Shown here piece by piece: positions 4,426 to 26,152 of a DNA stretch of 64,000 nucleotides. The stretch spans positions 32,001 through 96,000 of the forward strand of contig JAZLBQ010000007.1 in assembly GCA_045613785.1 (NCBI GenBank), in the 5' to 3' direction. A program made the position numbers and the translations under genes. Positions within the stretch are counted from its first letter, which is position 1; every line of letters starts with the position of its first letter. A model generated the notes under the pieces. It saw nothing but the letters and a program-made list of their open reading frames with translations. It was not told where the DNA came from and did not search any database. This DNA comes from Candidatus Enterousia sp. (GTDB lineage: Bacteria > Pseudomonadota > Alphaproteobacteria > Rs-D84).

Positions 4426-5052
4426 TTATCGAACTTTTTGTGCGATTTCTTCTGCTAACTTAGACGTATTCAATACTTGCTTTTGAATTTTGTCTTGCCC
4501 CAGTGCGGCGATAAATACTGTCACCATCATCGCAGGATAAACGACCGTGCCTGCACCTGTTTTTTCATATCCGAAAATCAAATTGTATGCAATCATACAC
4601 AGCATCGCAATCATATTGCCCAGATAAATACGACAGACATATACTTTCATTTTATGTATTGTCTGGTAAAGTTGTTTTAACTGTTCAATTTTTTTCTGTG
4701 TTTCTGCATCAACATTATTTTTAAAATCATTTTCCAGAATTTGAATAAATGCCCAGATTGCTCTGACAGAACCACGTTTAATTTCTGCAATTGCCAATTT
4801 TATCATCATATCACGGATATCACGGATAAAATCTGCTTGTGCATTTTGCCAATTAGTTGAATTTGTCTTGCTAGGTTCAGTTAAAAACTGGTGAGCCTCA
4901 TTTATCTGTTTAAATTTAGCCTCTGCATTTTTGTTGCCTGGATTTTTATCGGGATGATATTGAATTGCCAGCCGTCGCCAAGCCTTGCGAATATCATCAG
5001 GTGTTGCGTTTGGCTGTAAATTTAATAGTGAAAATGCTTCATCTTTCGTCAT
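4426..5052 (-). CDS. DnaJ-domain protein with two C-terminal TM segments
   Basis: J-domain with YHPDKN and KFKQINEA; likely start MTKDEAF; ends QKVR. Confidence 0.8.
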
Positions 5053-5170
5053 AAGCGGATAAATTAAAGTATAAAAAGGCATATGTCAAATAAATTCCCA
5101 GTTGCAAAAACGGAAAATCGGTATAGAATACAAAACTTAAAGTTTAATAATTTTTTGGGGGTAACAGGCT

Positions 5171-6532
5171 ATGCCAGCAAAAACAGTTCAAGATATAGTA
5201 GCATTATGTAAACGTCGTGGATTTATATTCACAGGCTCGGAAATTTATGGTGGATTGGGTGGTGCGTATGATTACGGTCCATACGGTGTTGAATTGATGA
5301 AGAATATCCGCAATGCATGGTGGAATTCTATGATATATTCACGTGATGACATCGAAGGCCTGGATGCTGCCTTGATATCAAACCGCCTGTTGTGGAAATA
5401 TTCTGGACACGAAGCAGGCTTTTCTGACCCGTTGGTAGAGTGCAAAAAGTGCGGCACTCGTATGCGTCAAGACAAGATGAAAGATATGTCAAAATGTGAT
5501 AATTGTGGCAGCACTGATATCACAGAACCACGTGCATACCAGTTGATGATGGGGCTGTCCATTGGTGCGACGGCGGATGGTGCGATAAATGCATACCTGC
5601 GTCCTGAAACAGCGACCACAACATATACAAATTTCAAGAACGTTCTGGACGCACGTCCACATAAATTACCATTTGGTATTGCTCAAATTGGCAAGGCGTT
5701 CCGTAATGAGATTTCTCCACGTGGATTTGTTTTCCGCATGCGTGAATTTGAACAGGCTGAAATGCAATACTTTGTCAATCCTGTGGACGATGAAAAGTTC
5801 CACAAAATGTGGATGGAACAGCGTATGGCCTGGTGGATTGATGTATTGGGAATTCCTGCGGAAAAATTACGTTTTATGCCACACGAAAAATTGGCACATT
5901 ATGCCAAGGCCGCTGTTGACATTGAATACGAATTCCCAGACGGCTTTGACGAAGTCGAAGGAATTCACAACCGTCAGGATTTTGACTTAGGCTCGCATAC
6001 CAAGGCACAGTCAGATTTCCAAATCCATGCAAATGTTTTGGAAAACACAGACAGCACAACCAAACTGTCGTATTCTGACCCACAAAGCGGCGAAAACTTC
6101 CTGCCATATGTAATTGAAACAGCGATGGGTGTAAATCGTGCTATGTTGGCTGTTATGATTCAGGCGTATGAAGAAGAAGACCTGGGCGATGGCAAAACTC
6201 GCACAGTGTTAAAGTTAAAACCAGCTCTGTCGCCAGTCAAGGCAGCGGTTATTCCATTGGCACGCAACGTTCCAGAATTGGTAAACATTTCAAATGATAT
6301 AGTAAAGCGTTTGCGTTCAATGGCAATTGGTCGCATAGAATTGGAAAATTCTGGCAACATTGGTAAAAACTATCGTCGTCATGACGAAATTGGAACGCCA
6401 GTGTGCATAACTGTTGACCATCAAACGCTGGAAGACAATACCGTAACTTTGCGTCATCGTGATACAATGGCTCAAGAACGTATTGCACTGACCGATGTTC
6501 CACAGCGAATTTTGGAAATAGTAAATGGTTAA
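5171..6532 (+). CDS. glyQS: Glycine-tRNA ligase, homodimeric alpha2 type
   Basis: LCKRRGF, YDYGPYG, YLRPETA, GKAFRNEISP, FRMREFEQ, DEIGTP anticodon-binding domain. Confidence 0.95.
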   Translation: MPAKTVQDIVALCKRRGFIFTGSEIYGGLGGAYDYGPYGVELMKNIRNAWWNSMIYSRDDIEGLDAALISNRLLWKYSGHEAGFSDPLVECKKCGTRMRQDKMKDMSKCDNCGSTDITEPRAYQLMMGLSIGATADGAINAYLRPETATTTYTNFKNVLDARPHKLPFGIAQIGKAFRNEISPRGFVFRMREFEQAEMQYFVNPVDDEKFHKMWMEQRMAWWIDVLGIPAEKLRFMPHEKLAHYAKAAVDIEYEFPDGFDEVEGIHNRQDFDLGSHTKAQSDFQIHANVLENTDSTTKLSYSDPQSGENFLPYVIETAMGVNRAMLAVMIQAYEEEDLGDGKTRTVLKLKPALSPVKAAVIPLARNVPELVNISNDIVKRLRSMAIGRIELENSGNIGKNYRRHDEIGTPVCITVDHQTLEDNTVTLRHRDTMAQERIALTDVPQRILEIVNG

Positions 6533-6557
6533 AAAATCCCCGTTTGGGGATTTTTTT
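6531..6557 (+). terminator. Intrinsic terminator (ATCCCC-loop-GGGGAT family)
   Basis: aaaaaatcccc gttt ggggattttttt. Confidence 0.8.
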
Positions 6558-6713
6558 ATGCAAAAAAACGCAAAAAACATAAAAAATAGTCAGTTTTGCA
6601 TAAAATTTTCGACAAAACGCTTGACTTTTATATAAAAAAACATAAAATCTGCATAAACTTTTCGCCAAAAGGCGTAAACAGAATAACAAAACACAACGTA
6701 AGAGAGAAAGAAG

Positions 6714-7013
6714 ATGAGCGAATTTGCAATCTTTCAAACCGGCGGCAAACAATATCGTGTTGCACAAGGCGATATTATCAAGGTTGAAAAACTGAATGCC
6801 GAAGGTTCGGTTGAATTTGACCAAGTTTTAATGGTTGGCGACAAAATTGGAACACCATTTGTTGAAGGTGCCAAGATTGTAGCCGAAGTAGTTGAACAGA
6901 AACGTGCTGACAAGATTTTGGTGTTCAAGAAAAAACGTCGCCAAAACTATCGCCGCACTGCGGGCCATCGTCAGTTCATCACTGTTTTGAAAATCAAAGA
7001 AATCAAAGCATAA
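6714..7013 (+). CDS. rplU: 50S ribosomal protein L21
   Basis: [13 protein letters not shown]...[16 protein letters not shown]. Confidence 0.98.
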
Positions 7014-7028
7014 TAAGGGGGCAGAACT

Positions 7029-7298
7029 ATGGCACATAAGAAAGCGGGTTCCGCATCAATGAATGGACGCGACTCTGCAGGACGCAGACTTGGCGTGAAA
7101 AAATCTGGTGGCAGTCGTGTAATCCCAGGTAACATCATCATCCGTCAGCGTGGCACATCTGTCCACCCAGGATTGAATGTTGGTATGGGTAAAGACCACA
7201 CAATCTTTGCAAAGATTGCCGGTATTGTGAAGTTTAAAAAGGGCAACGGCGACCGCAGAACAGTTTCTGTTATCCCAGAAGAAACAGAAGCAAAATAA
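7029..7298 (+). CDS. rpmA: 50S ribosomal protein L27
   Basis: MAHKKAG...[14 protein letters not shown]...[10 protein letters not shown]. Confidence 0.98.
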
Positions 7299-7299
7299 T

Positions 7300-7358
7300 A
7301 AAATCCCCGATTGGGGATTTTTTTTTGTGCAAAAAAACACCCGAACGGGTGTTTTTTT
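7300..7358. terminator. Two back-to-back terminators between convergent rpmA and ferredoxin genes
   Basis: aaaatcccc gatt ggggatttt and aaaaaaacaccc gaac gggtgttttttt. Confidence 0.8.
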
Positions 7359-7375
7359 ATAGTGTGATATCTTTT

Positions 7376-7558
7376 TTATTGAACGTCTGGTGCGATTGCT
7401 CCCATTGGACAAACTGCCGCACATGTTCCACAACTGATACATTTGCTGGTGTCGATAACATATTTACCTTCTGCCCCCTGTGAAATTGCGGCAACAGGAC
7501 ACATACCTGCACACGTTCCACAACCAATACATTTACTTGGGTCAATTTTATAAGCCAT
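7376..7558 (-). CDS. 2[4Fe-4S] ferredoxin (clostridial type)
   Basis: Two CxxCxxCxxxCP motifs in 60 aa. Confidence 0.93.
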   Translation of the reverse strand: MAYKIDPSKCIGCGTCAGMCPVAAISQGAEGKYVIDTSKCISCGTCAAVCPMGAIAPDVQ

Positions 7559-7592
7559 CTTTTTACTCCTATATATTTTTATGGTTTATTTC

Positions 7593-8300
7593 TTATTCAC
7601 GATTAAACAGACTCAACAAATATTGGAACATTGCGATAAAAGATATATACAAATGCAACGCCCCCAAAACAGCCATCTGATTCTTTTGCATATCATCGCC
7701 AATTACCGCATATGCACGTTTCAGATTTTGCATATCGTATGCGGTAAACAGTGCAAAAATCAAGACACCGATAAAGCATACAATTGTTCCAAATGTTCCG
7801 CCCAACATTGCTGGCCAGATAAAGGATAACAAACCAACCAAAATCAAGCCAATCATACCCATTGTCAAAAACACGCCCATAAAAGACAAGTCTTTGATAG
7901 TTTTATATCCAAACATAGCCATACAGGCAAACATAACCGCCGCCAAGACAAACGCAGTTATAATTGAAACAGGATTTACTGATAACGCAACTGCAATCAA
8001 TGGTGTCATAGTTACACCAATAACAACAGCATACAATGCCAACAACAGTGCTGCTGTCGAAGGTTTCATACTAAAAACACGCACCTGAGCCCAGATTGAC
8101 ACCGCCAATCCGCCAAATAACAGCACATAATACAGTCCTGACATACCGCCTGTCTGAAAATTAAACAAATACTGCAAGCCACCACCCCAAATAGTCAGAT
8201 ATGCGGCAACTGCGGTCAATCCGACTGCACCGAACATCAGTGCAAAAATACGTTTCAAATACAGGTCAATTCCACTTGTAGTTTTTTTTGCTATTTGCAT
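7593..8300 (-). CDS. Bax inhibitor-1/YccA family membrane protein
   Basis: 7 TM segments; FTAYDMQNLK; GALHLYISFI. Confidence 0.9.
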   Translation of the reverse strand: MQIAKKTTSGIDLYLKRIFALMFGAVGLTAVAAYLTIWGGGLQYLFNFQTGGMSGLYYVLLFGGLAVSIWAQVRVFSMKPSTAALLLALYAVVIGVTMTPLIAVALSVNPVSIITAFVLAAVMFACMAMFGYKTIKDLSFMGVFLTMGMIGLILVGLLSFIWPAMLGGTFGTIVCFIGVLIFALFTAYDMQNLKRAYAVIGDDMQKNQMAVLGALHLYISFIAMFQYLLSLFNRE

Positions 8301-8377
8301 CTTTATATTTCTCCTTGTTATTTAACAAATATATAATACAATAGTATGGTATTTTCAAGATTAAAAAGGATTTTAAT

Positions 8378-8608
8378 ATGGGTGGATTAAAAAAATATGA
8401 ACAGGAACGTGCTCAAAAGATCAGAGAACGTGGACCTCGTGAAGATCTTTCTGAAAAACAGAAAAAATCAGCAGTTGCTAAACATTTAACTAAACAGTTA
8501 GAAGCAGCGATAAAAAAATTAGAAGCAACCAAAGATCCAAAAAAAGAAGAGAAGTTAAATACTATTATTGCTGATATTCAAAAGACATTATCAACATTAC
8601 AACATTAA
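8378..8608 (+). CDS. Hypothetical Lys-rich coiled-coil protein
   Basis: 76-aa ORF with AAAGGA RBS. Confidence 0.65.
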   Translation: MGGLKKYEQERAQKIRERGPREDLSEKQKKSAVAKHLTKQLEAAIKKLEATKDPKKEEKLNTIIADIQKTLSTLQH

Positions 8609-8623
8609 ACTAAGGATATTATT

Positions 8624-8881
8624 ATGGCATCAACAGCAGCAAGATTTGCCATGCGTTCACGCGGCATAATCAAGGAATTAAAACAAGAAGACGAATGCAG
8701 GGTCAGCCACAATAATCGCAACGGTGTTATTTGTGCAATAAATACTCGGCACGCACAATATACACGTGAAATTGAAATGTTGCGTTCTTTGCCAAACCCA
8801 ACGCCTGCCCAGACAAAACGTTTGGCAACATTGGAACGCATTGTTCAAGATATGAGTAGCACAATTCAACGCACACGATAA
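8624..8881 (+). CDS. Hypothetical protein ending QRTR
   Basis: 85-aa ORF with AAGGA RBS. Confidence 0.65.
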   Translation: MASTAARFAMRSRGIIKELKQEDECRVSHNNRNGVICAINTRHAQYTREIEMLRSLPNPTPAQTKRLATLERIVQDMSSTIQRTR

Positions 8882-8905
8882 AAAAACATTTGGGCAGGGG
8901 GATTT

Positions 8906-9703: not shown

Positions 9704-9755
9704 TGTAGAATAGTCGCCGTTGACCAGAAAAAAATCGGTTAGCGAAAAAGGTTTA

Positions 9756-9845
9756 GGATGGTTGGCAGAGCGGTCGAATGCGGCGGTCTTGAAAACCGTT
9801 GTGGGGGCAACTCCACCGGGGGTTCGAATCCCTCACCATCCGCCA
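9756..9845 (+). tRNA. tRNA-Ser(TGA)
   Basis: GGATGGT/ACCATCC acceptor; anticodon loop CTTGAAA; long variable arm; GGTTCGAATCC; encoded CCA. Confidence 0.96.
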
Positions 9846-9848
9846 GAA

Positions 9849-10857
9849 ATAAAAAATGTCCCTTGTGGGCATTTTTTTATTTCGGTGTCGGTGGTCGGAT
9901 GAGAACCCCGGGTTCGACAACAAGTAGATTTTGCAAATAAATTTGTATAAAGTATTTGACAAAAATACTTTGTGTGTTGTATGTTGTGGCGAGGTATAAA
10001 ATGAAAGTAGAACACAAGCACATATTGATTAATTCAAATAACATCAGAGAATATCGCAAACAGGGGGCTCTGGTTGGTGGCTCGCATACAAGCGGCTGGG
10101 ATTTCTTTAATAATAAAAAAGTTGCTGACAGCACTGTAACTGTGTATAACTACAGTTTTGAGCCAGAATTATGTATTCATTCTTCTGACAAAGTATATCA
10201 AGCGGCAAAAAAAATAAATTCCGAGCAAGAAAACATTGCTGTTCACGAGATTAAACATGCTAAAAATGCAGACCAAGGACTTCCTTTTCATCTGGCAAGC
10301 GGGGTGTGTTGGACGCATGTAGCATTATACTGTCTTGACGAGTTGTCTGCACGCATTGACGAGGCCTTATATTCAATCAACAACACAAAATTAAAGTCTG
10401 TCTATTCGCAGTTCCTAGATTGTCTTGGTGTTTCACAGCTTGAGCGTGCAGTTAGTATCGCATTAAAGAGATTTGCACCATTGTTCCAAGATTATTGCAT
10501 GAAAGGTGTGTCTAGCTTTGAAAATTCGGTTCAGATGGCAAATTTCTCTGAAAAAGATTTGCAAGCATTTTTACAAAGCCAGCAACGACTATATTCTTGT
10601 TCGTTTAAAATGTCGCGTCCTGTTTTATACTCTATCAGTTTCCATGAAGCTGTGGGGAATTATTTTAGGTTTGATTCGATTCCAGAAAAGAACGTATTTA
10701 GCAGACAGGCAGCACATGAACTACGCAGTTTTTGGACAAAGTGCGAGCCAGAAATTATGCGTCATTCCAAAGACTGTATTAGTCGGATGTTGCAAAAAAC
10801 ACGATAAAAGTTTTTGTACTTTTTATGATAAAAAATGTCCATTGTGGGCATTTTTTT
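9849..10857 (+). repeat. 30-bp direct repeat of the tRNA-Ser terminator (9849-9878 and 10828-10857) bracketing one gene
   Basis: ataaaaaatgtcc(c/a)ttgtgggcattttttt; one mismatch. Confidence 0.85.
10001..10807 (+). CDS. Hypothetical zincin-like (HExxH) protein ending QKTR
   Basis: AVHEIKHAKN...DELSA; start MKVEHK after GAGGT RBS. Confidence 0.65.
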   Translation: MKVEHKHILINSNNIREYRKQGALVGGSHTSGWDFFNNKKVADSTVTVYNYSFEPELCIHSSDKVYQAAKKINSEQENIAVHEIKHAKNADQGLPFHLASGVCWTHVALYCLDELSARIDEALYSINNTKLKSVYSQFLDCLGVSQLERAVSIALKRFAPLFQDYCMKGVSSFENSVQMANFSEKDLQAFLQSQQRLYSCSFKMSRPVLYSISFHEAVGNYFRFDSIPEKNVFSRQAAHELRSFWTKCEPEIMRHSKDCISRMLQKTR

Positions 10858-10919
10858 TATTTTGCTGGTTGAATTTGAAATCTTTGCACCTACATTATTA
10901 AAAGAACAAGGAGTCCGCA

Positions 10920-11159
10920 ATGGTTTTAATAAGAGATATGTTAGAAATCGGCAAGGAAAGAACAAAAATTCATGAACCCGTCAAGGCAACTTATACCATT
11001 TTTCACGATTGTTCTGGAACAGTCTTTCAAATAGACACATATGGTTCAGCAGACAGGGAATGCACAGGCAAGGTCAGTCAAACCATACAATTCGACAAAA
11101 AGTCCGCTATTATGCTTATCGAGAAATTAAAAAAGACCTTTAACCTGGATCAAGACTAA
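10920..11159 (+). CDS. Small conserved hypothetical protein of a family I recall from defence islands
   Basis: FQIDTYGSADR...GKVSQTIQFD motif; AAGGAG RBS. Confidence 0.65.
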   Translation: MVLIRDMLEIGKERTKIHEPVKATYTIFHDCSGTVFQIDTYGSADRECTGKVSQTIQFDKKSAIMLIEKLKKTFNLDQD

Positions 11160-11164
11160 AAACA

Positions 11165-11692
11165 ATGAAATTATCAAAAAGCGATTTTTATAATTGGGCA
11201 TATTCTGATTTGCTGGTAAACGTAAATCGTGGTCGCTTTGCAGAATATATTGTTGCAACCGCACTAGGGATTGCTGACACTGAACGCCAGGAATGGGAGG
11301 CATACGATTTGCAATTTCAAGATATTCGCATAGAAGTAAAAAGTTCAGCATATATCCAGGGCTGGAATCAGCATGGAAAAATATCCAAGTTAGTTTTTGG
11401 TATTCGGCCAACGTTTGCATATGATGACAATATCGCAAGGCGTCAGGACGCATCAATGCGTCAATCTGACGTTTATGTATTTTGTGTGTTAAAGCATACT
11501 GACCACAAAACAATTGCTCCCGAAGATATGACCCAGTGGGAATTTTATATTGTTCCAACCCGTCTGCTGAATGAAAAATGTCCAACGCAAAAGACAATAA
11601 CATTATCAGCACTAAAGCGTCTGTTCAATGTTTCACCTGTTGCATACCAAGATATTAAAAGCGAGATTGTAAAGTCTATGAAGCCTGCATAA
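11165..11692 (+). CDS. PD-(D/E)xK restriction-endonuclease-like protein
   Basis: RGRFAEYIVA...AYDL...IRIEVKSSAY...SDVYVFC. Confidence 0.75.
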   Translation: MKLSKSDFYNWAYSDLLVNVNRGRFAEYIVATALGIADTERQEWEAYDLQFQDIRIEVKSSAYIQGWNQHGKISKLVFGIRPTFAYDDNIARRQDASMRQSDVYVFCVLKHTDHKTIAPEDMTQWEFYIVPTRLLNEKCPTQKTITLSALKRLFNVSPVAYQDIKSEIVKSMKPA

Positions 11693-11772
11693 AACCGGGC
11701 TTTTTTAATATGACCAAAATTGTCCGTTGTGTTTTATATACTGTATTGTGAAATAACAAAACAGGATAAAAA

Positions 11773-12030
11773 ATGACAACACAGAAATTAAACAAGATTA
11801 CAAAAAAACTACATAACCTGGTTGCATCTGGATTTAGATTTTATAAAAACAAGCATTCCGGTGTATTGTTATCATACCTGGACAACATCTTGTCAAATGG
11901 GGCAGGGGCAACCTTTGCAGTTCGCACAAAGCAGTTATGTCTGAACTTCGAAGAATTTTGCACAGACCCAGAAACAGGCGAATATTATTTGAATCTAGAT
12001 TCTGAAAATTTGTCATTGATAGGGAAATAA
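11773..12030 (+). CDS. Hypothetical protein
   Basis: 85-aa ORF with AGGA RBS. Confidence 0.55.
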   Translation: MTTQKLNKITKKLHNLVASGFRFYKNKHSGVLLSYLDNILSNGAGATFAVRTKQLCLNFEEFCTDPETGEYYLNLDSENLSLIGK

Positions 12031-12149
12031 AAATCTGGACAATTATAACTGTTTTGATATACTAGTAAACGTGCAAAGACATGGTGTTTTTGTGCTGCGG
12101 ATTTAATCCTAACTTGTCCTGCATTAACGGACTAAACAAGGGGTATTTT

Positions 12150-12623
12150 ATGTTAAAAGTTACGGTCAGGCCACCGACCACTGATACAGGGGCAATTCAA
12201 TGTTTGTTTGATAATCTGGAATTTTTAATCGCACGTCGTTCAGATGTTTTATCTGTTCCAGAATATTATAATGTTTTAATTCCAGGCTGTTATATTGCAG
12301 GGCTGTATATTGGCACGCAACAACTTTGTCTGGGTGATTTGCTATCATTATGGCAAGACGTTCCTTGGCATAGTGGCACCAGATATTATTTCAGCATAAT
12401 TGGTTCACCGCTAAGTGGCAGTAATCAGGCACGATATTGGGACGCTGCGACGCAGACAATCAATAACACCTATTATCAAGAGGCTTCACGTGGTTTTGCT
12501 GGGTTGTGGGTTCCGGCAAATAAACATATTCAGGAAAACACCGCACCAAAGGGTCTGCGAACACGCCCGTCTGGTATTGATATCAAAACCTTGCTAGACA
12601 AGTTAAAACAGTATTCCAGATAA
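12150..12623 (+). CDS. Hypothetical protein ending QYSR
   Basis: Start MLKVTV after AAGGGG RBS; GSPLSGSN motif. Confidence 0.6.
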   Translation: MLKVTVRPPTTDTGAIQCLFDNLEFLIARRSDVLSVPEYYNVLIPGCYIAGLYIGTQQLCLGDLLSLWQDVPWHSGTRYYFSIIGSPLSGSNQARYWDAATQTINNTYYQEASRGFAGLWVPANKHIQENTAPKGLRTRPSGIDIKTLLDKLKQYSR

Positions 12624-12628
12624 CTATT

Positions 12629-12868
12629 CTAGGCTTCTTCGGCCGTTGTGCACATTTTTGCAAAATCAACAATAGAAGTTTCTGTTGCTTTTATAATTTT
12701 TGCGATTGTGCTGCACGATGGCCAACGTGGTGTTCCGTCTGGGGAAAACTGTTTACTTTTATTAAAAGTGGTCGCATCCAGTCCACTAAACTTTGCTAGT
12801 CCTGAACAGGTCATTCCTTGTTTCTTTGCTAATTTATCAATTGCATTCCATAACGCTTTGTGGGTCAT
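12629..12868 (-). CDS. Stand-alone HTH regulator (N-terminal domain of alphaproteobacterial HTH-S24 repressors)
   Basis: MTHKALWNAIDKLA...SGLAKFSGLDATTFNKSK...RWPS; paralog at 38937. Confidence 0.85.
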   Translation of the reverse strand: MTHKALWNAIDKLAKKQGMTCSGLAKFSGLDATTFNKSKQFSPDGTPRWPSCSTIAKIIKATETSIVDFAKMCTTAEEA

Positions 12869-15006: not shown

Positions 15007-15047
15007 AAAATCAGATAAAAAAATTCCCCCAAACGGGGGATTTTTTT

Positions 15048-16163
15048 TTAACGCATTTTTTGTTGATTCTGTGCAAATAACAACTGTGGTTGCGTTGTCA
15101 TTGTTGGTTGTTTTGCAAAATTTGGCGAGTCTAACCAAATATTGCGAGTGTCCTTATCCTTGTTAAAATATTTTGCGATTGCCATATTTACCAGCATTTC
15201 ACGTGGATACATACCATAAGGCATAGGTTCACCCAAATATTTTATCAGTTGTTTACTGCTCATTGATTTTATGCGTTCTAATTCTTTTGCATATTCCGTT
15301 CGTGCAATTCTTTTAATATCTGCCGCAAATACATTTGACATATCGTAAGAGCTGAACAGATCTCCAATTTTTTCACGGTTATGTCCAGCATAGATATGAC
15401 GTCCGTTTTTATTTGGAATGAACTTACCGTTTTCGATGCTGCCCCGTCCCAGGTATAAAATTGCATGAAATGTGTTACGGCTGCCATGGTATCTTGGAAC
15501 AATCAAAATAGTTCCAGGATTCAAATTGTCCGCATTAAAATTCTTGCCTTCGAAACGTTTTGTTATCTGTTTTTTTACAGAATCAGGTGTATTTGCCGCA
15601 ACTTTGTTTCTGGCCAAGAATTTATCTTTTGCAGCCTGAAAAGCTGAATCAGATTGATATACAGTGCCTTCGTAAATGCAATCAGCATATTCGTTATTAG
15701 CGTATTTGCTACGCATTTTTTCTTTGAACTGAGAACATGCTGTTCTTGCTCCTTCTGGGATAATGTCCAAAGTGTCGCCTGTTTCCGCCAGTGCACGTGA
15801 CAACTGTGTATATTGCCCCCAAACACAGTGATATCCCACTGGTGCACCAGGCAACTCACGACGCACAGCAGCACTGTATCCACGTTTACCCAACAGTGGG
15901 TTTAACTTAGCCTGCGAACGCAACATATTTTTTACATAAATGTCGCTCAGGTTTTCTGCTTTGTCGTCCAAGCAAGAATCAGTATCGGTCTTTTGAAAAT
16001 TATACATTTTAGACAGTGTGACAGAATTTGCCAATTCTAGCTGGTAATAACTTAGCTTTTCTTCATCATCTGAATTTCTGTCGGGTAAAGTGTTTGCGTT
16101 TGCAGAAAAAGTGCCTGATAATGTTCCGGCCAGCAAATACGGAACAATACTTTTAAATTTCAT
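15048..16163 (-). CDS. Exported hypothetical protein with possible papain-like (NlpC/P60/CHAP-like) Cys-His dyad; ends QKMR
   Basis: Signal-like MKFKSIVPYLLAGTLSGTFSANA; GYHCVWG and PGTILIVP...FHAILYLG. Confidence 0.55.
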   Translation of the reverse strand: MKFKSIVPYLLAGTLSGTFSANANTLPDRNSDDEEKLSYYQLELANSVTLSKMYNFQKTDTDSCLDDKAENLSDIYVKNMLRSQAKLNPLLGKRGYSAAVRRELPGAPVGYHCVWGQYTQLSRALAETGDTLDIIPEGARTACSQFKEKMRSKYANNEYADCIYEGTVYQSDSAFQAAKDKFLARNKVAANTPDSVKKQITKRFEGKNFNADNLNPGTILIVPRYHGSRNTFHAILYLGRGSIENGKFIPNKNGRHIYAGHNREKIGDLFSSYDMSNVFAADIKRIARTEYAKELERIKSMSSKQLIKYLGEPMPYGMYPREMLVNMAIAKYFNKDKDTRNIWLDSPNFAKQPTMTTQPQLLFAQNQQKMR

Positions 16164-16501
16164 TTTTTTTCCTCTTTGCAATCAATTAAACGGCCACACA
16201 ACAGCAGAAATAAAATTTCTGTATGATATGGATTCTTTATTTTTGTTTTTGTTTTGATTGGTTCACCGCAATAAAAATCAATTTGCGATGTACATTCAGA
16301 CGTTTAAAAGAACAAACGCCCCGACTTGCTGTAATTACCGTTACCCGCAGCCCGCCCCGTTTCCAGGGAACCAAAGTTTGTATATACAATATATAACAAA
16401 AACCTGTGTTTTGTCAAGGGGTGGGCTAAAAAATATTTGATTATTTGTGTAAATTTTTTTGTGTTGTTATTTTTTTTCAAATGTTTTAAATTTTGATTAC
16501 T

Positions 16502-18733: not shown

Positions 18734-18763
18734 AAAATCCCCCGAAAAGGGGGATAATTTTTT

Positions 18764-18848
18764 TGGTGCGGGTAAGGAGACTCGAACTCCTATGGGTTGC
18801 CCCGCTGGAACCTAAATCCAGTGCGTCTACCAATTTCGCCATACCCGC
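18764..18848 (-). tRNA. tRNA-Leu(TAG)
   Basis: Reverse complement GCGGGTATGGCGAAATTGGTAGACGC...CTGGA TTTAGGT TCCAG...GTTCGAGTCTCCTTACCCGCACCA. Confidence 0.95.
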
Positions 18849-19634: not shown

Positions 19635-20063
19635 ATGAATTTCAAAGGTTTTGCAATTGGTGCATTAGCGTTGGCCTTGATGGGGTGTAATGATAATACA
19701 CAAAATCCAGAAGTCTTAAAGGGATTAAACTTTGTTTCTGCTCAACCGGGTGCAGATATAACAATCGCATTTGATCCAAATGAAATGCGTGTATATGGTG
19801 GTGTTGTAAATCGTTATAACGGTGGTTATACTGCCGATGGCGATAACATTAAATTCGAAGGCTTTGCATCAACAATGATGATGGGTGCACCCGAAGCGAT
19901 GGAAACCGAACAAGAATACTTTGAATTTATGCCAACTGTTGAACGGTATGAATATTCAGAAGGTAAATTGACATTGATTGCGACTGACGGCAAAGAAATA
20001 ATCTTTACCCAGGTTGAAACATTACCGGGCGAAGTTTCCGAAGAACAGCCTCAGGCACAATAA
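19635..20063 (+). CDS. META-domain (HslJ-like) lipoprotein
   Basis: Lipobox ALMGC; GGVVNRYNGGY...FASTMMMG; AAGGAG RBS. Confidence 0.85.
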   Translation: MNFKGFAIGALALALMGCNDNTQNPEVLKGLNFVSAQPGADITIAFDPNEMRVYGGVVNRYNGGYTADGDNIKFEGFASTMMMGAPEAMETEQEYFEFMPTVERYEYSEGKLTLIATDGKEIIFTQVETLPGEVSEEQPQAQ

Positions 20064-20094
20064 AAAAATAAAGGCAACAAAAACAAAACGCCAT

Positions 20095-21294
20095 TTAAAT
20101 GGCGTTTTGTTTTATAACTTCATTGACTATTGGTGCAAAATATATATAAATAGCACAACCAACCACCGCCAGCGTCAATAGGGCACAGATTTTCAGGTAT
20201 TGGTCTAAATGGTTTGTCTTTTGTTTTACCCAGTTGATAATATCTTGAATCCAAACACCAATCAACATACCCATAACAACATAGAATAAACCTGTTACAT
20301 ATATTTGTTTGGGATAAAAGAAATACCAGAAATTATGCCAGAATGCATGTTGGTTAAAATGTAAAAACCATCCGAAAAAAAACTGTCCCAGATAATAGAA
20401 AAAGTTTAACAGTGTGAATCCCAGAAAATGGTTAGCCATAATAGAATAAGTGCTATTAGAAACCTTATAGATTGTTGGGCTATTGCCAATAGCCGGGGTC
20501 AGCAGCCGTGCAATTCGTAACCAAAATGCGATTCCCAGTATTCCGCCCGCAAAAGCGATATAAGAATAAGTCCCCCATGCAACAGAACACGTAAAAGTTT
20601 TCCCCATCATAAGTATTAGTGCGATTTTAGTTCCAACGACAATTGCGAAGTATTTCAGGTTTGATAGATTGTCATATTTTTCTAATACGTTTTTATAGTA
20701 AAAACCTATGGCAAAAAATGGGATAAAATATAACAATCTAGCCAAAACCAAGTGATTTTTTGCGACCCCGATTTCAGACATATATGCACCAAACATCCCG
20801 ATTAAAATGCATAAAATCAAGTATATAAATTCGTGTTTAATCAAGTGTCTAGTTATTCGTCTGAACAAGACATAAAATACTTGGGTCATAAACAGTGGGG
20901 CAACAAACCACGTCGCAAGGTTATAATCAAATTGGTGACCGTTTGTTAGTGGTTCTATAAATAGTTTCGACAAGTCAAAAGCATGAGCATAAGTAAATCC
21001 ATTAACGGACAAGAACTGCAAGAGCAATCCATATGCAATGTTGTATAGGTAAAGAGGAATAATTAGAGTTTTAAATTTTTTCCAAATATACAACAAAGGC
21101 CTATCAACATTTTGTTCTTTAAAGAAATATCCCGAACAGAAAACAAAAAGAGCGATGTTAAAAATAAACAGAGGGAAAATTTCATGAAACAAAGAAATGC
21201 CGACACCGTCTGTTATATGAGAAATAATAACCAGAACGATTCCGATTGCATATAAAATTCTGAATTGTAAATTGTCTTTTTTTGTATTATCCAT
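20095..21294 (-). CDS. Acyltransferase-3 (OafA-like) membrane O-acyltransferase
   Basis: GIVLVIISH, FVFCSGYF, WFVAPLF; multiple TM segments. Confidence 0.85.
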   Translation of the reverse strand: MDNTKKDNLQFRILYAIGIVLVIISHITDGVGISLFHEIFPLFIFNIALFVFCSGYFFKEQNVDRPLLYIWKKFKTLIIPLYLYNIAYGLLLQFLSVNGFTYAHAFDLSKLFIEPLTNGHQFDYNLATWFVAPLFMTQVFYVLFRRITRHLIKHEFIYLILCILIGMFGAYMSEIGVAKNHLVLARLLYFIPFFAIGFYYKNVLEKYDNLSNLKYFAIVVGTKIALILMMGKTFTCSVAWGTYSYIAFAGGILGIAFWLRIARLLTPAIGNSPTIYKVSNSTYSIMANHFLGFTLLNFFYYLGQFFFGWFLHFNQHAFWHNFWYFFYPKQIYVTGLFYVVMGMLIGVWIQDIINWVKQKTNHLDQYLKICALLTLAVVGCAIYIYFAPIVNEVIKQNAI

Positions 21295-21388
21295 ATCTTT
21301 ATTATGATTATAGAGTTTATTATAATAAGATTTCAATCCTAAAATGATGGGGCAGGGGGTAAAAAAGAATAAAATCACAGATAAATAC

Positions 21389-21417
21389 TTGACAATCAAA
21401 TAAAAACTATGTATAAT
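21389..21417 (+). promoter_or_regulatory. Consensus sigma70 promoter of tRNA-Glu
   Basis: TTGACA-17 bp-TATAAT. Confidence 0.85.
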
Positions 21418-21449
21418 TTGCCAGCGTTCGATATGAACAAGGCAGTTTT

Positions 21450-21525
21450 GGCCCCATCGTCTAGAGGCCTAGGACACCGCCCTTTCAAGGCGAGAACACC
21501 GGTTCGAATCCGGTTGGGGCTGCCA
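21450..21525 (+). tRNA. tRNA-Glu(TTC)
   Basis: GGCCCCATCGTCTAGAGGCCTAGGAC...CTTTCAA...GGTTCGAATCCGGTTGGGGCTGCCA. Confidence 0.96.
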
Positions 21526-21741
21526 AAATAAAATGACCATCCTTGCGGTGGTCTTTTTTATTTTGAATCAGCGGTCCCAACCGGATGCGCCCGAGTGCCG
21601 GCAGAAAACGCAGTTTTCGTGGGCGTCGCCCACAGGCACGCATGGCGAATACGCAGATAGATAATTAGCAAACCCGCAAAAACGGATATGTTTAATAGAG
21701 TTTTTGTGTCTAGGTTTGGTTATTGTATATCAAGGGGCGAA

Positions 21742-22790
21742 GTTGGGGCTGCCAAAATAGATAAAACCGCATTTTTGCGGTTTTTTTTTATTGGTTTTGC
21801 AATACTTTCAGCAGTTCGTAAGTTAGGTGTTGAAAACACATGCCGTTTTGCTGACTTACGAACTTTTAAAAAGAAAAGGTTAGAAATCTAACCTTTTTCT
21901 TTGTTCAAATTTATTGTGGGCATTATTCGTTTTCTGATTGAAACAATCGATTGGCGATAATCTTATTTGTATATTTTTCTTTGATTTTATTTATACCAGC
22001 ATTAAAACCACCTCGTAAATAAAGGTTTTCCATTTGTTGATATGTTTTTATATTGTCATATTCCGATGGCTCTAAAATGGCACTTATTACATAGTCTTTT
22101 TGATTGTGCCCGACTGCATCAATGTTTTCACCAACCTTACAAATGCCATCTATTTGTGCTTTTTCGTAAGTTTTTCCTTTCCCAGGGTCAATCATATGCA
22201 AACCGTCTGATAATTTTATTGAAACAAGTTGATGACCGTCTATCATTTTGCCTGAATTTTTATTTTTAATATCTTCTTTTTTTGCGGTAGCAATAATACT
22301 AAAATCTTTTAATCCAATTTCTTGTGCGTATTTAGAAAACAATTTAGCGCGCCCAGTGCACCCCGCAGCATTATATGGAATTTTTTGTTCGACAATATCA
22401 TCGCCAGATAATGAAAAATTAAAATTTTTATGGTCTGTTATTTCTGGGTGTTGTTCAAAATATTCATCACGAGATATAGCATTTTTCAAAGATGGTTCTA
22501 TATCATGAAAAAAATCATCGATTTTTTGCAGTACAATATTTACTTTTTCAATAATATCTTTATCTGTATTTGTCATAGATGAATTATAGCACGAAATTAA
22601 CAAATTTGCAAAAATACCTTAACTTCTTTCCCAAACATCAACAATTCGTGTATTATATCTGCTCGCAAATTGCACAGATGGGGCTGCCAGAATAGATAAA
22701 ACCGCATTTTTGCGGTTTTTTTATTTGTTTACTTTGCTTTTCTGTGGTTTGTAAGTCAGGCGGTAAAAACTATATCCGTTTTATCGACTT
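21742..22790 (+). repeat. Two further copies of the tRNA-Glu 3' end, each with a shared terminator and downstream motif (about 21742-21864 and 22679-22790)
   Basis: gttggggctgccaaaata is identical to 21513-21530; 44-bp tggggctgcca(a/g)aatagataaaaccgcatttttgcggttttttt at 21744 and 22679. Confidence 0.9.
21923..22576 (-). CDS. Transglutaminase-like/papain-fold protein
   Basis: Putative Cys-His-Asp triad: GCTGRAKLF, DGHQLV, MIDPG. Confidence 0.6.
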   Translation of the reverse strand: MTNTDKDIIEKVNIVLQKIDDFFHDIEPSLKNAISRDEYFEQHPEITDHKNFNFSLSGDDIVEQKIPYNAAGCTGRAKLFSKYAQEIGLKDFSIIATAKKEDIKNKNSGKMIDGHQLVSIKLSDGLHMIDPGKGKTYEKAQIDGICKVGENIDAVGHNQKDYVISAILEPSEYDNIKTYQQMENLYLRGGFNAGINKIKEKYTNKIIANRLFQSENE

Positions 22791-22803
22791 TTAATCTTTT
22801 CGA

Positions 22804-24186
22804 TTAAAGATATATTTCTTTATCTGTTTTTATGTTTCTGACAAACATTTCATCATGTGATACTAGTAATATAGCACCAGTATATTGATTCAAAGCTTCT
22901 TCTAATATCCCAATGCTTTTGATTTCAAGATTATTAGTTGGTTCGTCCAAAATCAATAAATCTGGTTGATTGTCACCGCCAAGAATTGTCGCTAATGTTG
23001 CTTTTAATAATTCTCCGCCAGATAATGTTCCAACCTTTTGTTGTGATGCGTTTCCACGAAAACCAAAGTTAGCCGCAATCGCATGAGCGTCGTGCTTAAG
23101 ACAATCTGAGATTTCTACGATATTTTCAATGATGGTTTTATTTTTATCTAAGACAGATAAAACTTGATCGACATATGCTATCTTGCCAGATGTTTTAACA
23201 GTTCCAGATTCTGGTTTTAACTCGCCACGAACGATTTTTAACAGTGTAGATTTTCCAGAGCCATTTTTCCCAACTAGTCTTACCCTTGATTTGCCATACA
23301 TGGTAAAATCAAAATCTTTAAATACAGTTTTATCTCCATATGCAAAGCATAAGTCAGATATATTTATCAATTCTTTACTGTAAAAGGATTTGTTGGGTAA
23401 AGGAATTTTTATCGTTTCATTTCGCATTTGTTCAGACAAAGATTGTTGAATCGATATTTGTTCGTTTAATTTCTTTTGAATAATTGCACGCTTTTTTGCT
23501 TCTGTTTCTTGGCTTTTACCTCGAAGAGCATTTGCGGCTATTCGGCTTCGTTTAGAATTGTCGATTTCTTTATGTTGTTTGAATTCATGGTGTTGTCTTG
23601 TATTTTGGGCAATATTTATTGTATTATTCAATCTAGCAATAGATTTTTGAGCGTTAGTATATTTGGAATATATATTGTCTTGCTCTATTCTTTTTTGTTC
23701 TAGATAGAAATCATAATTACCGCTATAGACTTTTAATTGTCCATTATGTATTTCAATTATTTTTTCCATTTGTTGTAAAAGTTCCCTGTCGTGTGAAACG
23801 ATAGCGACCCCGTGCGGATATGTGTTCAAACGGTCAAAAAATATCTGTTTTGCATCTGTGTCTAAATTATTAGTTGGTTCGTCCAACAGTAAAACATCTG
23901 CGTTAGATTCAAAAGCCCGCATAAGTGCAAACATTTGTTGTTCGCCACCACTTTTGGAATCTGATACATTTATTTGATTCAACAGGTAAACATTTGCATT
24001 TTTGTGAACTGTGCCAGAATCAGGCAATAAATCCCCACTCAACAACCGTAGTAGGGTTGTTTTTCCCGAACCATTATCGCCAATAATTGCCACGTGTTCT
24101 TTGTCATTAAACACGACAGAAATACCGTTCAATAAATTATTATTGTTGTATCCGAAAATACACTTTGATAAAGAAATTAAAGCCAT
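22804..24186 (-). CDS. ABC-F ATPase, probable ribosomal protection (ARE) type
   Basis: Two NBDs (GDNGSGKT/SGGE/LDEPTNNL; GKNGSGKS/LSGGE/LDEPTNNL); no TM segments; short NBD1 and long linker. Confidence 0.85.
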   Translation of the reverse strand: MALISLSKCIFGYNNNNLLNGISVVFNDKEHVAIIGDNGSGKTTLLRLLSGDLLPDSGTVHKNANVYLLNQINVSDSKSGGEQQMFALMRAFESNADVLLLDEPTNNLDTDAKQIFFDRLNTYPHGVAIVSHDRELLQQMEKIIEIHNGQLKVYSGNYDFYLEQKRIEQDNIYSKYTNAQKSIARLNNTINIAQNTRQHHEFKQHKEIDNSKRSRIAANALRGKSQETEAKKRAIIQKKLNEQISIQQSLSEQMRNETIKIPLPNKSFYSKELINISDLCFAYGDKTVFKDFDFTMYGKSRVRLVGKNGSGKSTLLKIVRGELKPESGTVKTSGKIAYVDQVLSVLDKNKTIIENIVEISDCLKHDAHAIAANFGFRGNASQQKVGTLSGGELLKATLATILGGDNQPDLLILDEPTNNLEIKSIGILEEALNQYTGAILLVSHDEMFVRNIKTDKEIYL

Positions 24187-24187
24187 A

Positions 24188-24328
24188 ATAAAACCCTTAT
24201 ATTGCAATCGAGTAGACACATATTTCTATGTGCGATTTATCAAAAATTACAATATTACATACACATCGGGTTTTATCCTTTGTTTATATTACACACACAA
24301 ATTGTATTACAAATATTGGTAAAATCAA
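24188..24328 (-). promoter_or_regulatory. Translational attenuator leader with M-C-M-stop uORF (24266-24255)
   Basis: TTGATT-16-TACAAT promoter; AAAGGA RBS then ATG TGT ATG TAA; 9-bp inverted repeat 24188-24196/24268-24276 masks the ABC-F RBS. Confidence 0.7.
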
Positions 24329-24384
24329 GCTTTTTCTCTAAAAACACCTTATTGTCTTTTGCAAATAGCAACGAGTTATTTTAT

Positions 24385-25128
24385 CTACTGTATTTCAATT
24401 TGGTCTATATCGACCAGCAGCCGATTTATCTCACGGCAAAGGTGTTCAAACTCTGGCTTTTTCTGATATGTGTATTCGTCCATATACAGGCTACGCTTTA
24501 TTTCAATCATAAATGAAATAACATTGGGATTATTTTTATAATAGCGTCCAGGGACGATTGAGCCTGCAAAAGGTTCGTTTACTCCATATGACCAGCCATT
24601 TCGCACACAGAAATCTGCTATCTTGTCAAAAATTATCTTGTTGTAGTGAGGATGTTCATAACCAATGCAAATATCTGGCTGCTTGTCAGTTTGTAGGCCT
24701 ATGCGATAGCTAGAAGGATAACTGTGCAAATCAATTATGATTGCATGATTATTGCAGGCCAGTGATTTATGTGTAATTGATTCTAATAAATTATGATGTG
24801 GGTAATAAAATTTATCCAGTAATTCCTGTCGTAGTTTTGCATCAGGGCTATGTTTAATAATTTTCCCAGAACAAGAGTGAGTATATATAACCCCCATACC
24901 ATATTGGCTAGCAGGTTCATCTTGGTCATCAACAAATCGTTCTGTATCAACGACTAGTCTGGATATTGGGGCGACCAGTTTGATAAATCTGGGATTGTCA
25001 AAGACCATTTCATCGGTATAAAGATCCGCCAGTTTATAGGCTTCGCTAGTTGCTTCTTCTATATCGCAAATGAACAAGTCTTGAAAATCGAGTTTTACAG
25101 ACGAATGAGGAATATTTACTATAATCAT
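24385..25128 (-). CDS. N-formylglutamate amidohydrolase family protein
   Basis: NIPHSS, DLYTDE, SRLVVDTERF, YYPHH, DLHSYP, PDICIG, NEPFAG, MIEIKRSLY. Confidence 0.9.
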   Translation of the reverse strand: MIIVNIPHSSVKLDFQDLFICDIEEATSEAYKLADLYTDEMVFDNPRFIKLVAPISRLVVDTERFVDDQDEPASQYGMGVIYTHSCSGKIIKHSPDAKLRQELLDKFYYPHHNLLESITHKSLACNNHAIIIDLHSYPSSYRIGLQTDKQPDICIGYEHPHYNKIIFDKIADFCVRNGWSYGVNEPFAGSIVPGRYYKNNPNVISFMIEIKRSLYMDEYTYQKKPEFEHLCREINRLLVDIDQIEIQ

Positions 25129-25210
25129 ATGATTGTCCTTGTTTGACTTTACTAGTTTATCATCTCTTTTTACTGTTGCAAGATTTGTTCGTTTAAATAT
25201 TCTTATCTGG

Positions 25211-25321
25211 TTGATTTTTTTGTGTTTTTCTGGTATAATAGACCATACAAAGCGGACGGTTTTTTGCCGTCTTTTTTATCCCTGCCAAGGCAGGGCTTTT
25301 TTATTACCCAAGGATTTTATA
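25211..25321 (+). promoter_or_regulatory. Promoter followed by two tandem hairpin-U tracts upstream of the lysozyme gene
   Basis: TTGATT-17-TATAAT; gacggt..gccgtc-T6; ccctgcc aa ggcaggg-c-T6. Confidence 0.65.
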
Positions 25322-25825
25322 ATGATAATAAGCAACAAAGGAATAGAATTGTTAAAGTGCCTAGAGGGAGCGGTCAAAGTCCACGGCCGACACGTTATAT
25401 ACGACGATGCAACAGGTCGTCCAATTTGTCCAGGGGGCATATTGCCACCTGGTGCAACAATCGGTTATGGGCATCTGATAACGCCCGAGCAAGATTTTTC
25501 AGACGGCATAACAGAAGAGGTCGCAACAGAATTGCTGCGTTCAGATATTGCACAAGCAGAGCAAGTGGTTCAAGAAAGTGTCAAAATTCATTTAATGCAA
25601 AATCAGTATGATGCGCTGGTATTACTGGTGTTTAACATTGGTGGTGGAAACTTTCGAAAATCAACTGTTTTGAGATATATAAATAATCCGAAATATCGCA
25701 GTGTAAAATACCCAACGTTGTCTGATGCGTGGCTGGCGTGGAATCGGTGTCGTGGTCAGGTTGTGCCAGGGTTGACCAGACGCAGGCAGTGTGAACTGAA
25801 TATTTATTATGGAAAACAGAACTAA
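25322..25825 (+). CDS. Phage-type lysozyme (GH24)
   Basis: GIELLKCLEG, YDD, TIGYGH, NQYDALV.LVFNIG, GLTRRR. Confidence 0.9.
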   Translation: MIISNKGIELLKCLEGAVKVHGRHVIYDDATGRPICPGGILPPGATIGYGHLITPEQDFSDGITEEVATELLRSDIAQAEQVVQESVKIHLMQNQYDALVLLVFNIGGGNFRKSTVLRYINNPKYRSVKYPTLSDAWLAWNRCRGQVVPGLTRRRQCELNIYYGKQN

Positions 25826-25912
25826 GTTCTTGTGATTTATGGTTGACAAAATTCGGTTATGTCCTATAATGTAAGTGTGTAAATAATCATATAAACTAAC
25901 GGAAAAGGCATA

Positions 25913-26152
25913 ATGAACAACAGAGAAATAAAAGATAAAAGCCAAGAAAAGTTTAAAATAATGGAATCTTTTAACAAAGCCTTTCTTAGTGTTTTGACTG
26001 CAGGTGGTGTTGCTATATCAACGCTGGCGTTGCTGACTCAAAAGCCAAATTCAGATCTGATGTTATTGATTGGCATATGGTTTACGGTTGCTGGTGCGGG
26101 TGGTATTTTATCTGATTGTATAACAAAACAGAAAGACCAAAGAATGCGTTAA
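25913..26152 (+). CDS. Small two-TM hypothetical protein ending QRMR
   Basis: 79 aa; own TTGACA-16-TATAAT promoter at 25843-25870. Confidence 0.65.
   Translation: MNNREIKDKSQEKFKIMESFNKAFLSVLTAGGVAISTLALLTQKPNSDLMLLIGIWFTVAGAGGILSDCITKQKDQRMR

Follow-up and report, generated by a model that had tools for sequence, protein, structure and literature searches.

Eukaryotes have well-known signals confined to the last few residues of proteins that are otherwise unrelated; there, PTS1 (-SKL) and the endoplasmic reticulum signals -KDEL and -KKXX each consist of a three- to four-residue consensus that acts at the extreme C-terminus and is read by one receptor. To our knowledge, tags at the extreme C-terminus are rare in bacteria outside degrons and the outer-membrane beta-signal. 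The VirB/D4 type IV secretion system (T4SS) of Agrobacterium also recognizes the C-termini of its substrates, for which the signal consensus is reportedly R-x7-R-x-R-x-R. PMC10025392 describes a consensus C-terminal Arg motif in these substrates, with positive charges that matter in VirF and 19 C-terminal VirF residues that suffice for transfer. Here, we analyze a C-terminal Q-x-x-R motif first seen in a window of 64,000 nucleotides from Candidatus Enterousia sp. (Alphaproteobacteria, Rs-D84; GenBank assembly GCA_045613785.1, contig JAZLBQ010000007.1, positions 32,001 to 96,000). In our numbering the window is G000:C7:32001-96000, and the assembly, G000, comprises 1,044,118 bases in 26 contigs. 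The genus group consists of widespread, uncultured gut bacteria with very small genomes, according to PMC12306168. The original prediction, made from the window alone, held that six unrelated orphan proteins encoded between positions 4426 and 26152 share this tail and that it is a candidate effector tag, possibly read by a T4SS-like locus. We find that the motif is real, exceeds chance and is constrained at the protein level; the link to the T4SS consists in a resemblance to the positively charged, Arg-containing signals of VirB/D4 substrates.

A C-terminal Q-x-x-R motif constrained at the protein level

Genes were called with a crude home-made procedure, in which codon log-odds trained on long open reading frames (ORFs) were followed by greedy overlap removal. 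It gave 1034 ORFs covering 89% of G000, and all motif counts reported here, in G000 and in its relatives, depend on it. Translation confirms the six C-termini of the window (AQKVR, IQRTR, LQKTR, KQYSR, QQKMR, and DQRMR), five of which are Q-[KR]-x-R, and no further Q-x-x-R end occurs among the 81 ORFs of the window (27 of them within 4426-26152). Genome-wide, the motif closes 22 of the 1034 ORFs, against 5.0 expected from position-specific composition with -4 and -1 taken as independent (Fisher p = 1.6e-10); global composition and the internal rate of Q-x-x-R give still lower expectations of 1.7 and 1.6, respectively.

An open scan over the last eight positions of G000 proteins places Q(-4)/R(-1) at the top of 2937 residue pairs. 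The next specific pairs, G(-6)/F(-1) and Y(-3)/F(-1), belong to the outer-membrane beta-signal, and since the scan recovers these known pairs, it does pick up a real sorting signal, which serves as a positive control. The coupling depends on spacing: together with terminal R, Q is found 22 times at -4 but 11 times at -5 (4.9 expected) and 4 times each at -3, -6, -7, and -8 (3.1-3.8 expected). It also depends on the end itself, as Q-x-x-R placed 1, 2, 3, 4, or 5 residues before the C-terminus is found in 4, 0, 1, 1, and 2 ORFs, respectively. Terminal Lys in G000 does not show the same coupling (16 Q-x-x-K ends versus ~14 expected).

The excess is robust to every length and score cut-off tried, with 10 carriers against 1.5 expected among the 556 ORFs of at least 200 aa (p = 3.0e-7), and it is not seen in caller-rejected ORFs of at least 60 aa (9/2827, ~10.8 being expected from their own margins). 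A survey of the motif as an in-frame DNA pattern was dropped as too noisy, as G000 holds 39 matches versus 21-30 at other spacings. A count of orphan against core genes, which had been suggested as a check, shows that the tail is commoner in accessory genes: it closes 15/374 ORFs without a match in four sampled relatives and 7/660 ORFs with one (p = 0.0027). Q/R coupling is significant in both classes (for ORFs with a match, 7 vs. 1.24 expected, p = 9e-5). The cluster in the window is a mild one, at most 5 carriers per 25 consecutive genes (permutation p = 0.008).

Several observations place the constraint on the protein. As had been noted, codons vary among the six window tails (CAA or CAG for Q; CGA, AGA, or CGT for R), and across the 22 carriers the terminal Arg is encoded by AGA in 7, CGT in 6, CGA in 6, CGC in 2, and CGG in 1. 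An all-against-all BLASTP comparison of the carriers (E<=1) yields a sole match, a pair of DUF3419 proteins. Because the tails have no DNA in common, their Arg codons vary, and the carriers include a single pair of paralogues, the constraint acts at the protein level, as was originally proposed. The 130 bases 3' of the 22 carrier stops contain no common repeat beyond stereotyped intrinsic terminators. Such terminators (an A-run, CCCCC, a four-base loop, GGGGG, and a T-run) lie 3' of dozens of genes, for example at window positions 15010-15047 and 18734-18765, and are often common to convergent genes. A ~105-base hairpin repeat that begins at the stop codon has five copies in G000 (C24:100784, C26:28815, C26:19026, C26:16120, and C1:38666); it was rejected as the source of the motif, as none of the five lies at a carrier and the host-gene tails are VERAK, FPPLR, PDRHE, FTAAN, and RNNLG.

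These data bear directly on whether chance, a gene-calling artefact, or a DNA-repeat footprint could have supplied the last codons. The crudeness of the caller, together with several short carriers of low coding score, speaks for such an origin. It is, however, hard to reconcile with the significance of the excess, overall and among long ORFs, with the background level in rejected ORFs, with coupling that holds on its own in ORFs with a match in relatives, or with varied codons, 3' regions that have no repeat in common, and hairpin copies that sit behind other genes. It is already close to refuted, and we give it hardly any credence.

The tail has further regularities. Position -3 is K or R in 14/22 carriers, against 4.3 expected, and position -2 is chiefly polar or small-aliphatic (polar in 10/22). 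Upstream, position -11 is acidic in 8/22 (3.2 expected) and -10 hydrophobic in 14/22 (7.7 expected), with hydrophobic residues also at -9 and -6, a spacing which suggests that an amphipathic helix usually precedes the tail. Over their last 20 residues, carriers have a net charge of +2.0, and other ORFs one of +0.5. For one carrier family, of 184 aa, an AlphaFold model (mean pLDDT 85.7) shows a final helix that stops at residue 180, with the last four residues after it at a lower pLDDT of 72. A fold search with this model gave no match at E<=0.001, and PDB sequence searches with the 377-aa, 184-aa, and 283-aa carriers gave none better than E 0.4.

The strongest evidence for a function of the tail is its conservation within families. 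In four of them it remains terminal although the linker before it has gained or lost residues. Among 120 ThyX homologues (59-96% identity), R is terminal in 91, K/R stands at -3 in 100, Q/E stands at -4 in 98, and the full Q-x-x-R is present in 60; from the PxxF motif to the end there are 11-34 residues, and the terminal pattern is kept in each length class. A dCTP-deaminase-like enzyme found in 92/151 genomes of the genus ends, at 30 loci (29 relatives and G000), in QKKR (7), EKQK (7), QKQK (6), or QKQR (2), the remaining tails being EKQR, VKQR, EKVR, GKKR, EKTR, QKMK, EKIR, and GIIR. Its Arg is encoded by CGG, AGA, CGA, CGT, or CGC, with synonymous changes, and its linkers have indels. The 184-aa family occurs in 14/151 genomes; 10 of 11 orthologues (29-56% identity) end in Q-[NH]-V-R and one in ENVR, and the terminal V and R are among just 16 invariant columns. 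An exported 377-aa family, with orthologues in 11/41 genomes including G000, has tails of QKQR, QKTM, QKTL, QKLR, QDRV, QKTR, QRTI, IRTK, AFTR, and KRDK. Across 47 full-length representatives of this family, Q(-4) is found in 14, T(-2) in 15, and R(-1) in 14, an end that is related but distinct, Q-[RKH]-T-[I/L/M/R]. A 260-aa family, with relatives in 30/151 genomes and tails taken from the protein database, has terminal R in 39/58 and K/R(-3) in 21, and its Q(-4) is confined to G000 and the closest relative. In several families, Q(-4) of G000 corresponds to K, S, or N in congeners (LQRIR versus LKRIR, PQKIR versus PSRVR, and IQRTR versus LNRTR). Purifying selection on the protein keeps the tail in several unrelated families.

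Five relatives were sampled in part (~1/4 to 2/3 of each genome) with the same ORF calling: the congeners G003, G006, G013, and G015, and G040, which belongs to another family. Relative to G000, their proteins have a median identity of 82-83% (G006 and G015), 72% (G013), 67% (G003), and 43% (G040). Strict Q-x-x-R closes 6/373 ORFs in G003 (2.5 expected), 2/625 in G006 (1.3 expected), 1/227 in G015, 0/306 in G013, and 1/383 in G040. It is not enriched in the sampled parts of the latter four, of which the G015 sample alone is too small to be separated from G000. Another genome, G100, was excluded from the counts, as its 3/98 is biased by the sampling of 100 kb around two known carriers. The contrast between 22/1034 in G000 and 9/1531 in the four congeners pooled (p = 7e-4) bears out the claim that the strict form is lineage-specific. 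Looser forms have a wider distribution: in the pooled congeners, [KR]-x-R occurs 45 times against 24.2 expected (p = 3.5e-6) and [QE]-[KR]-x-[KR] 30 times against 10.6 expected (p = 8e-7). In the G040 sample neither is enriched (7 vs. 4.9 and 2 vs. 4.0, respectively), yet protein ends there are equally Lys-rich (118/383). On these counts, there appears to be a genus-wide basic tail motif that was sharpened to Q-[KR]-x-R in the G000 species.

The carriers and their genomic surroundings

The carriers are diverse and, contrary to the original prediction, are not orphans only. With a Pfam cut-off of E<=0.01, 13/22 have no match and 9/22 belong to known families, namely DnaJ, Thy1 (ThyX), DCD (the dCTP-deaminase-like enzyme), GT2, GNAT, DUF3419 (twice), DUF7192, and DUF2659 (slightly below the family's own cut-off). 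A phage-like contig encodes one carrier, and another is the enzyme with orthologues in 92/151 genomes. The carriers are placed singly among housekeeping genes (such as ffh, rlmE, hisS-prfA, rpsP-rimM, metG, and groEL) and form no single island. A hydrophobic 19-mer is present in 4/22 carriers, versus 33% of all ORFs, so that carriers are mostly soluble, and, judged from the sequences, the C-terminus of ~18/22 should be cytoplasmic.

The ThyX carrier lies on contig C21 (40.6 kb; loci L121 and L122), which is phage-like by PHROGs, with a major head protein, Erf, a RecE-like exonuclease, a helicase/primase, a DNA methyltransferase, HNH endonucleases, and an endolysin. Homologues of this ThyX recur on 34-48 kb contigs in public data, a hint that these bacteria have a phage family of their own. 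The DUF7192 carrier, ending in QQVR, is encoded within C7:112710-118351 (L126) beside McrBC with an AAA_5 ATPase and a second AAA_5 ATPase that ends in RNTR; this may be a defence locus.

Within the window, the first carrier is a 218-aa J-domain protein (4426..5082, - strand; Pfam DnaJ, E 2.9e-21), whose tail Q-K-V-R is encoded at 4429-4440 and stop codon at 4426-4428. Its two hydrophobic segments, 19-mers from residues 147 and 176, fit the J-domain and transmembrane description given originally and imply a topology in which its C-terminus would be cytoplasmic; it has relatives in 12/151 genomes of the genus. The second is an 85-aa helical orphan without a Pfam family (8624..8881, + strand), with Q-R-T-R at 8867-8878. 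At the same site in G003, between a Bax-inhibitor-like gene and lgt, small ORFs end in LNRTR, ATLKR, and NKQKSR. Tandem helical proteins of 65-87 aa, with a C-terminal pattern of approximately L-x-x-T-[IL]-x-R, occupy this position between the Bax-inhibitor-like gene and lgt, two copies at window positions 8378-8881 and four at G003:C2:213928-214931.

Two further carriers follow a tRNA-Ser gene (9756-9845). The nearer, of which the tRNA gene is just 5', is a 283-aa orphan (9956..10807, + strand) with Q-K-T-R at 10793-10804; its HEIKH bears out the HExxH pattern ascribed to one carrier, it has no Pfam family, and among 5.8 billion protein clusters it falls in its own 90% cluster only. The other is a 180-aa orphan (12081..12623, + strand) with Q-Y-S-R at 12609-12620, the sole one of the six without K/R at -3; it has no Pfam family and no match in the sampled relatives. 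The stretch at 9756-12868, which may represent a small island at the tRNA gene, comprises tRNA-Ser and then six ORFs that match no Pfam family, these two carriers included. The last of the run is a small HTH-like ORF (12629-12868, - strand), for which there is a paralogue at 38937-39179.

The fifth window carrier, the 377-aa member of the exported family (15048..16181, - strand; Q-K-M-R at 15051-15062), has the Sec-type N-terminus that was predicted for one carrier and is possibly NlpC/P60/CHAP-like, NlpC/P60 being the lead in the ESM Atlas at 0.92. The last is a 79-aa protein without a Pfam family (25913..26152, + strand; Q-R-M-R at 26138-26149), with hydrophobic 19-mers from residues 22 and 48, that overlaps the start of the next ORF (26116-27195).

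Two other features of the window were noted. Positions 20000-24300 are low in GC (0.34 vs. ~0.40) and encode a 434-aa multi-pass membrane protein, a 226-aa ORF, and a 471-aa double ABC ATPase; this may be foreign DNA beside tRNA-Glu (21450-21525). At 41873-42334, a 153-aa protein consists almost entirely of AKKVAAKPV-type repeats and has a histone-H1-like composition.

VirD4 as a candidate reader and the competing explanations

G000 encodes a T4SS with VirD4, its genes scattered over at least four loci: VirB3/VirB4 (C26:60031-62753), VirD4 (C26:105735-107984), VirB9/VirB10 (C4:72390-75581), and a VirB11-sized ATPase (C3:661-1140). Convergent with the VirD4 gene is one for SspB (Pfam SspB, E 1.5e-27). 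TrbL/VirB6 was not found in G000 with Pfam PF04610. The T4SS-like locus that had been placed at 59.4-61 kb of the window comes down to a VirB8-like ORF (59605..60309, + strand) with a sub-threshold Pfam VirB8 match (E 1.8e-4; 21.9 bits, below the cut-off of 23.2); the adjoining ORFs at 60309-60950 and 60931-61749 match no Pfam family, and clear T4SS genes lie elsewhere in the genome. VirD4 is present in 4/4 relatives searched and VirB4 in 3/4, the fourth genome being 79% complete. Identity to the G000 VirD4 is 88% in G015, 86% in G006, 74% in G003, and 49% in G040, and the near-identity to G006 and G015 includes the C-terminal tail of the protein. A C-terminal extension of VirD4 is common to the genus and missing in G040. 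The looser motif tracks the genus and thus this extension, which, with one outgroup genome, may be taken as a hint. A complex prediction for VirD4 residues 150-749 and the 184-aa carrier scored 0.00 and counts neither way. A TPR protein near virD4 was also considered as a reader; its N-terminal basic stretch is followed by a hydrophobic segment, and because the TPR part probably faces the periplasm, it was dropped.

Based on these findings, we hypothesize that the tail is a recognition tag. The motif is a short linear one anchored at the free C-terminus, Q-[KR]-x-R in G000 and [QE]-[KR]-x-[KR] or [KR]-x-R in the genus, and many accessory proteins have gained it convergently; we infer a single reader, one cytoplasmic machine that would bind it in trans. 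A motif of the free end that withstands indels, is flexible, has been gained repeatedly, and drifts in consensus between species resembles a tag co-evolving with such a trans reader. The likeliest reader, at a guess, would be the VirD4 coupling protein of the scattered VirB/D4 T4SS. We rank VirD4 first because VirD4-type coupling proteins are a documented class that uses positively charged, Arg-bearing extreme C-termini in an alphaproteobacterium (PMC10025392; general features in PMC8047123). We put the probability that the tail is a recognition tag read in the cytoplasm, with VirD4 as the leading candidate, at roughly 0.3. The more specific proposal, that the genus-wide [QE]-[KR]-x-[KR], sharpened to Q-[KR]-x-R, is a VirB/D4 T4SS substrate signal and that a phage adopted the tag for its own enzyme, is rather unlikely.

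Several observations weigh against this hypothesis. Motif load does not follow the T4SS or VirD4 across the sampled genomes. Given that VirD4 is shared with genomes that lack the strict motif, the suggested test of co-occurrence with virB4 and virD4 does not discriminate and lends the link no support. In G006 and G015, where the strict motif is not enriched, VirD4 is 86-88% identical, tail included; this argues against a simple link, and a change of specificity is not evident. Chance alone would account for about 5 of the 22 carriers. By our reading of the sequences, the C-terminus probably lies outside the cytoplasm in three or four: the 377-aa Sec-type protein, a 457-aa protein encoded on C25, the DUF2659/YfgM-like protein, and possibly a 112-aa ORF on C10. 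This number is near that of the five chance carriers. The phage-contig ThyX and the dCTP-deaminase-like enzyme of 92/151 genomes are unlikely effectors. Finally, terminal codons are A-rich: AGA or CGA encodes the terminal Arg of 13/22 carriers and of 54/88 Arg-ending ORFs, versus 22% of all Arg codons, and Q(-4) is CAA in 19/22 carriers versus 54% genome-wide, which indicates that nucleotide-level pressure also acts on gene ends.

This last point is central to a reading in which there is no common reader, families separately keep a basic polar cap, and a lineage-wide preference at gene ends (termination context or A-rich mRNA before the stop) adds the excess. The base preceding the stop is A in 55% of G000 ORFs, 249/1034 ORFs end in Lys, families differ in flavour (QKQR in ThyX, Q[NH]VR in the 184-aa family, Q[RKH]T[ILMR] in the 377-aa family, and [RK]xR without Q in the 260-aa family), and carrier C-termini lie in more than one compartment. 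A composition effect, however, should also couple Q(-4) to Lys and other Q offsets to Arg, and neither is seen; Arg is kept through synonymous changes that include the non-A-rich CGG, CGT, and CGC; G040, with equally Lys-rich ends, has no motif excess; and the presence of Q(-4) in G000 against another residue in congeners, in several families, looks directional. We regard separate caps without a reader as a serious, if doubtful, alternative. Somewhat less credible is a C-terminal degron or adaptor tag that would mark many foreign or accessory proteins for an AAA+ protease (ClpXP with SspB, Lon, or FtsH) and so control their lifetime. Such proteases read the free C-terminus, and the carriers are soluble and inner-membrane proteins with cytoplasmic ends, both of which FtsH handles; the SspB gene convergent with virD4 and the presence of the tail on a phage enzyme and on accessory genes would also fit. 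On the other hand, known bacterial C-terminal degrons end in non-polar residues and this tail in Arg, with a definition that includes no hydrophobic residue in the last four positions, the proteases are highly conserved, so that an equal load would be expected in G006, G013, and G040, which is not what the strict form shows, and a destabilizing tag kept for long on a metabolic enzyme of 92/151 genomes needs a special reason. A basic end acting in cis is less probable again. The tail would then close a C-terminal amphipathic helix on the inner membrane or on nucleic acid, as in MinD or FtsA, and the hydrophobic positions -10, -9, and -6 together with the basic positions -3 and -1 do fit one helix face with a cationic end; membrane or nucleotide roles are also expected from family for GT2, the two DUF3419 proteins, the J-domain membrane protein, ThyX, and the DCD-like enzyme. 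Such a helix accounts neither for Q(-4), nor for terminal Arg over Lys, nor for the exact terminal position from which shifted copies are so few, and in the sole model made the last four residues lie past the helix.

Significance and comparison with described C-terminal tags

The Q-x-x-R motif statistically outranks the beta-signal in the same genome and is common to enzymes, membrane proteins, and orphans as well as to a protein of phage origin. Should one reader exist, the motif would offer a handle on the cell biology of this group, as a list of effectors or a set of proteins under regulated turnover, depending on the reader. Were the tail recognized by the T4SS, it would provide the first tetrapeptide consensus for a signal of this kind and would name ~20-30 candidate injected proteins per genome of a reduced-genome gut symbiont. 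If there is no reader, it would clearly exemplify how selection can act on protein ends in one lineage, in a way that present terminal-bias models do not predict. Titles and abstract openings of the literature on Enterousia or Rs-D84 secretion systems yielded no such motif.

The signals of VirB/D4 substrates (VirF, VirE2, VirE3, and VirD5 of Agrobacterium; Msi059/Msi061 of Mesorhizobium) resemble the tail in that, according to PMC10025392, they are the unprocessed last residues of unrelated proteins, hydrophilic, and net positive, with Arg important. The host is likewise similar, G000 being alphaproteobacterial with VirB4, VirB9, VirB10, and VirD4. Of the features that characterize VirB/D4-type signals, C-terminal placement on unrelated proteins, a net positive charge with Arg, and a coupling protein in the genome are all present. 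VirB/D4 substrates are cytoplasmic before transfer and have no Sec signal; among the carriers, ~18/22 seem from sequence to have a cytoplasmic C-terminus, and three or four are Sec-type or have a C-terminal domain in the periplasm. The tail differs in its sharpness, VirB/D4 signals being a loose Arg pattern across ~20 residues, and we know of no VirB/D4 signal with a sharp tetrapeptide at the last residue or a requirement for glutamine. Unlike in the VirB/D4 case, carriers include a phage enzyme and exported proteins, and relatives with a near-identical VirD4 lack the strict motif. In the Dot/Icm (IVB) and Xanthomonas X-T4SS systems, with their Glu-rich or hydrophobic C-terminal signals and the XVIPCD domain, recognition by the coupling protein or complex is likewise C-terminal (PMC8047123; PMC10025392). 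However, XVIPCD is a domain of ~120 residues, and the 22 carriers have no domain in common by BLASTP or Pfam. The T4SS substrate signals covered in PMC8047123 are rich in glutamic acid and serine, or in tiny polar residues, whereas the tail consists of Q and basic residues.

Among other tags, the ssrA tag and the C-motifs read by ClpX and SspB are likewise short motifs at the free C-terminus of unrelated cytoplasmic proteins, and SspB is encoded in G000. Tags of the ssrA type (LAA) end in small non-polar residues, whereas 22/22 of the tails end in Arg. The beta-signal, which our pair scan also finds in G000 and in G006, ends in Phe, belongs to beta-barrels, and has BamA as its periplasmic reader, whereas Q-x-x-R carriers are mostly soluble. 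The CendR motif, [RK]-x-x-[RK], needs a basic residue at -4, where the tail has Q in 22/22 carriers and E/Q in the looser form. Provided that the tail is a tag, PTS1, KDEL, and KKXX are nearest in form, although they are eukaryotic and differ in sequence and machinery.

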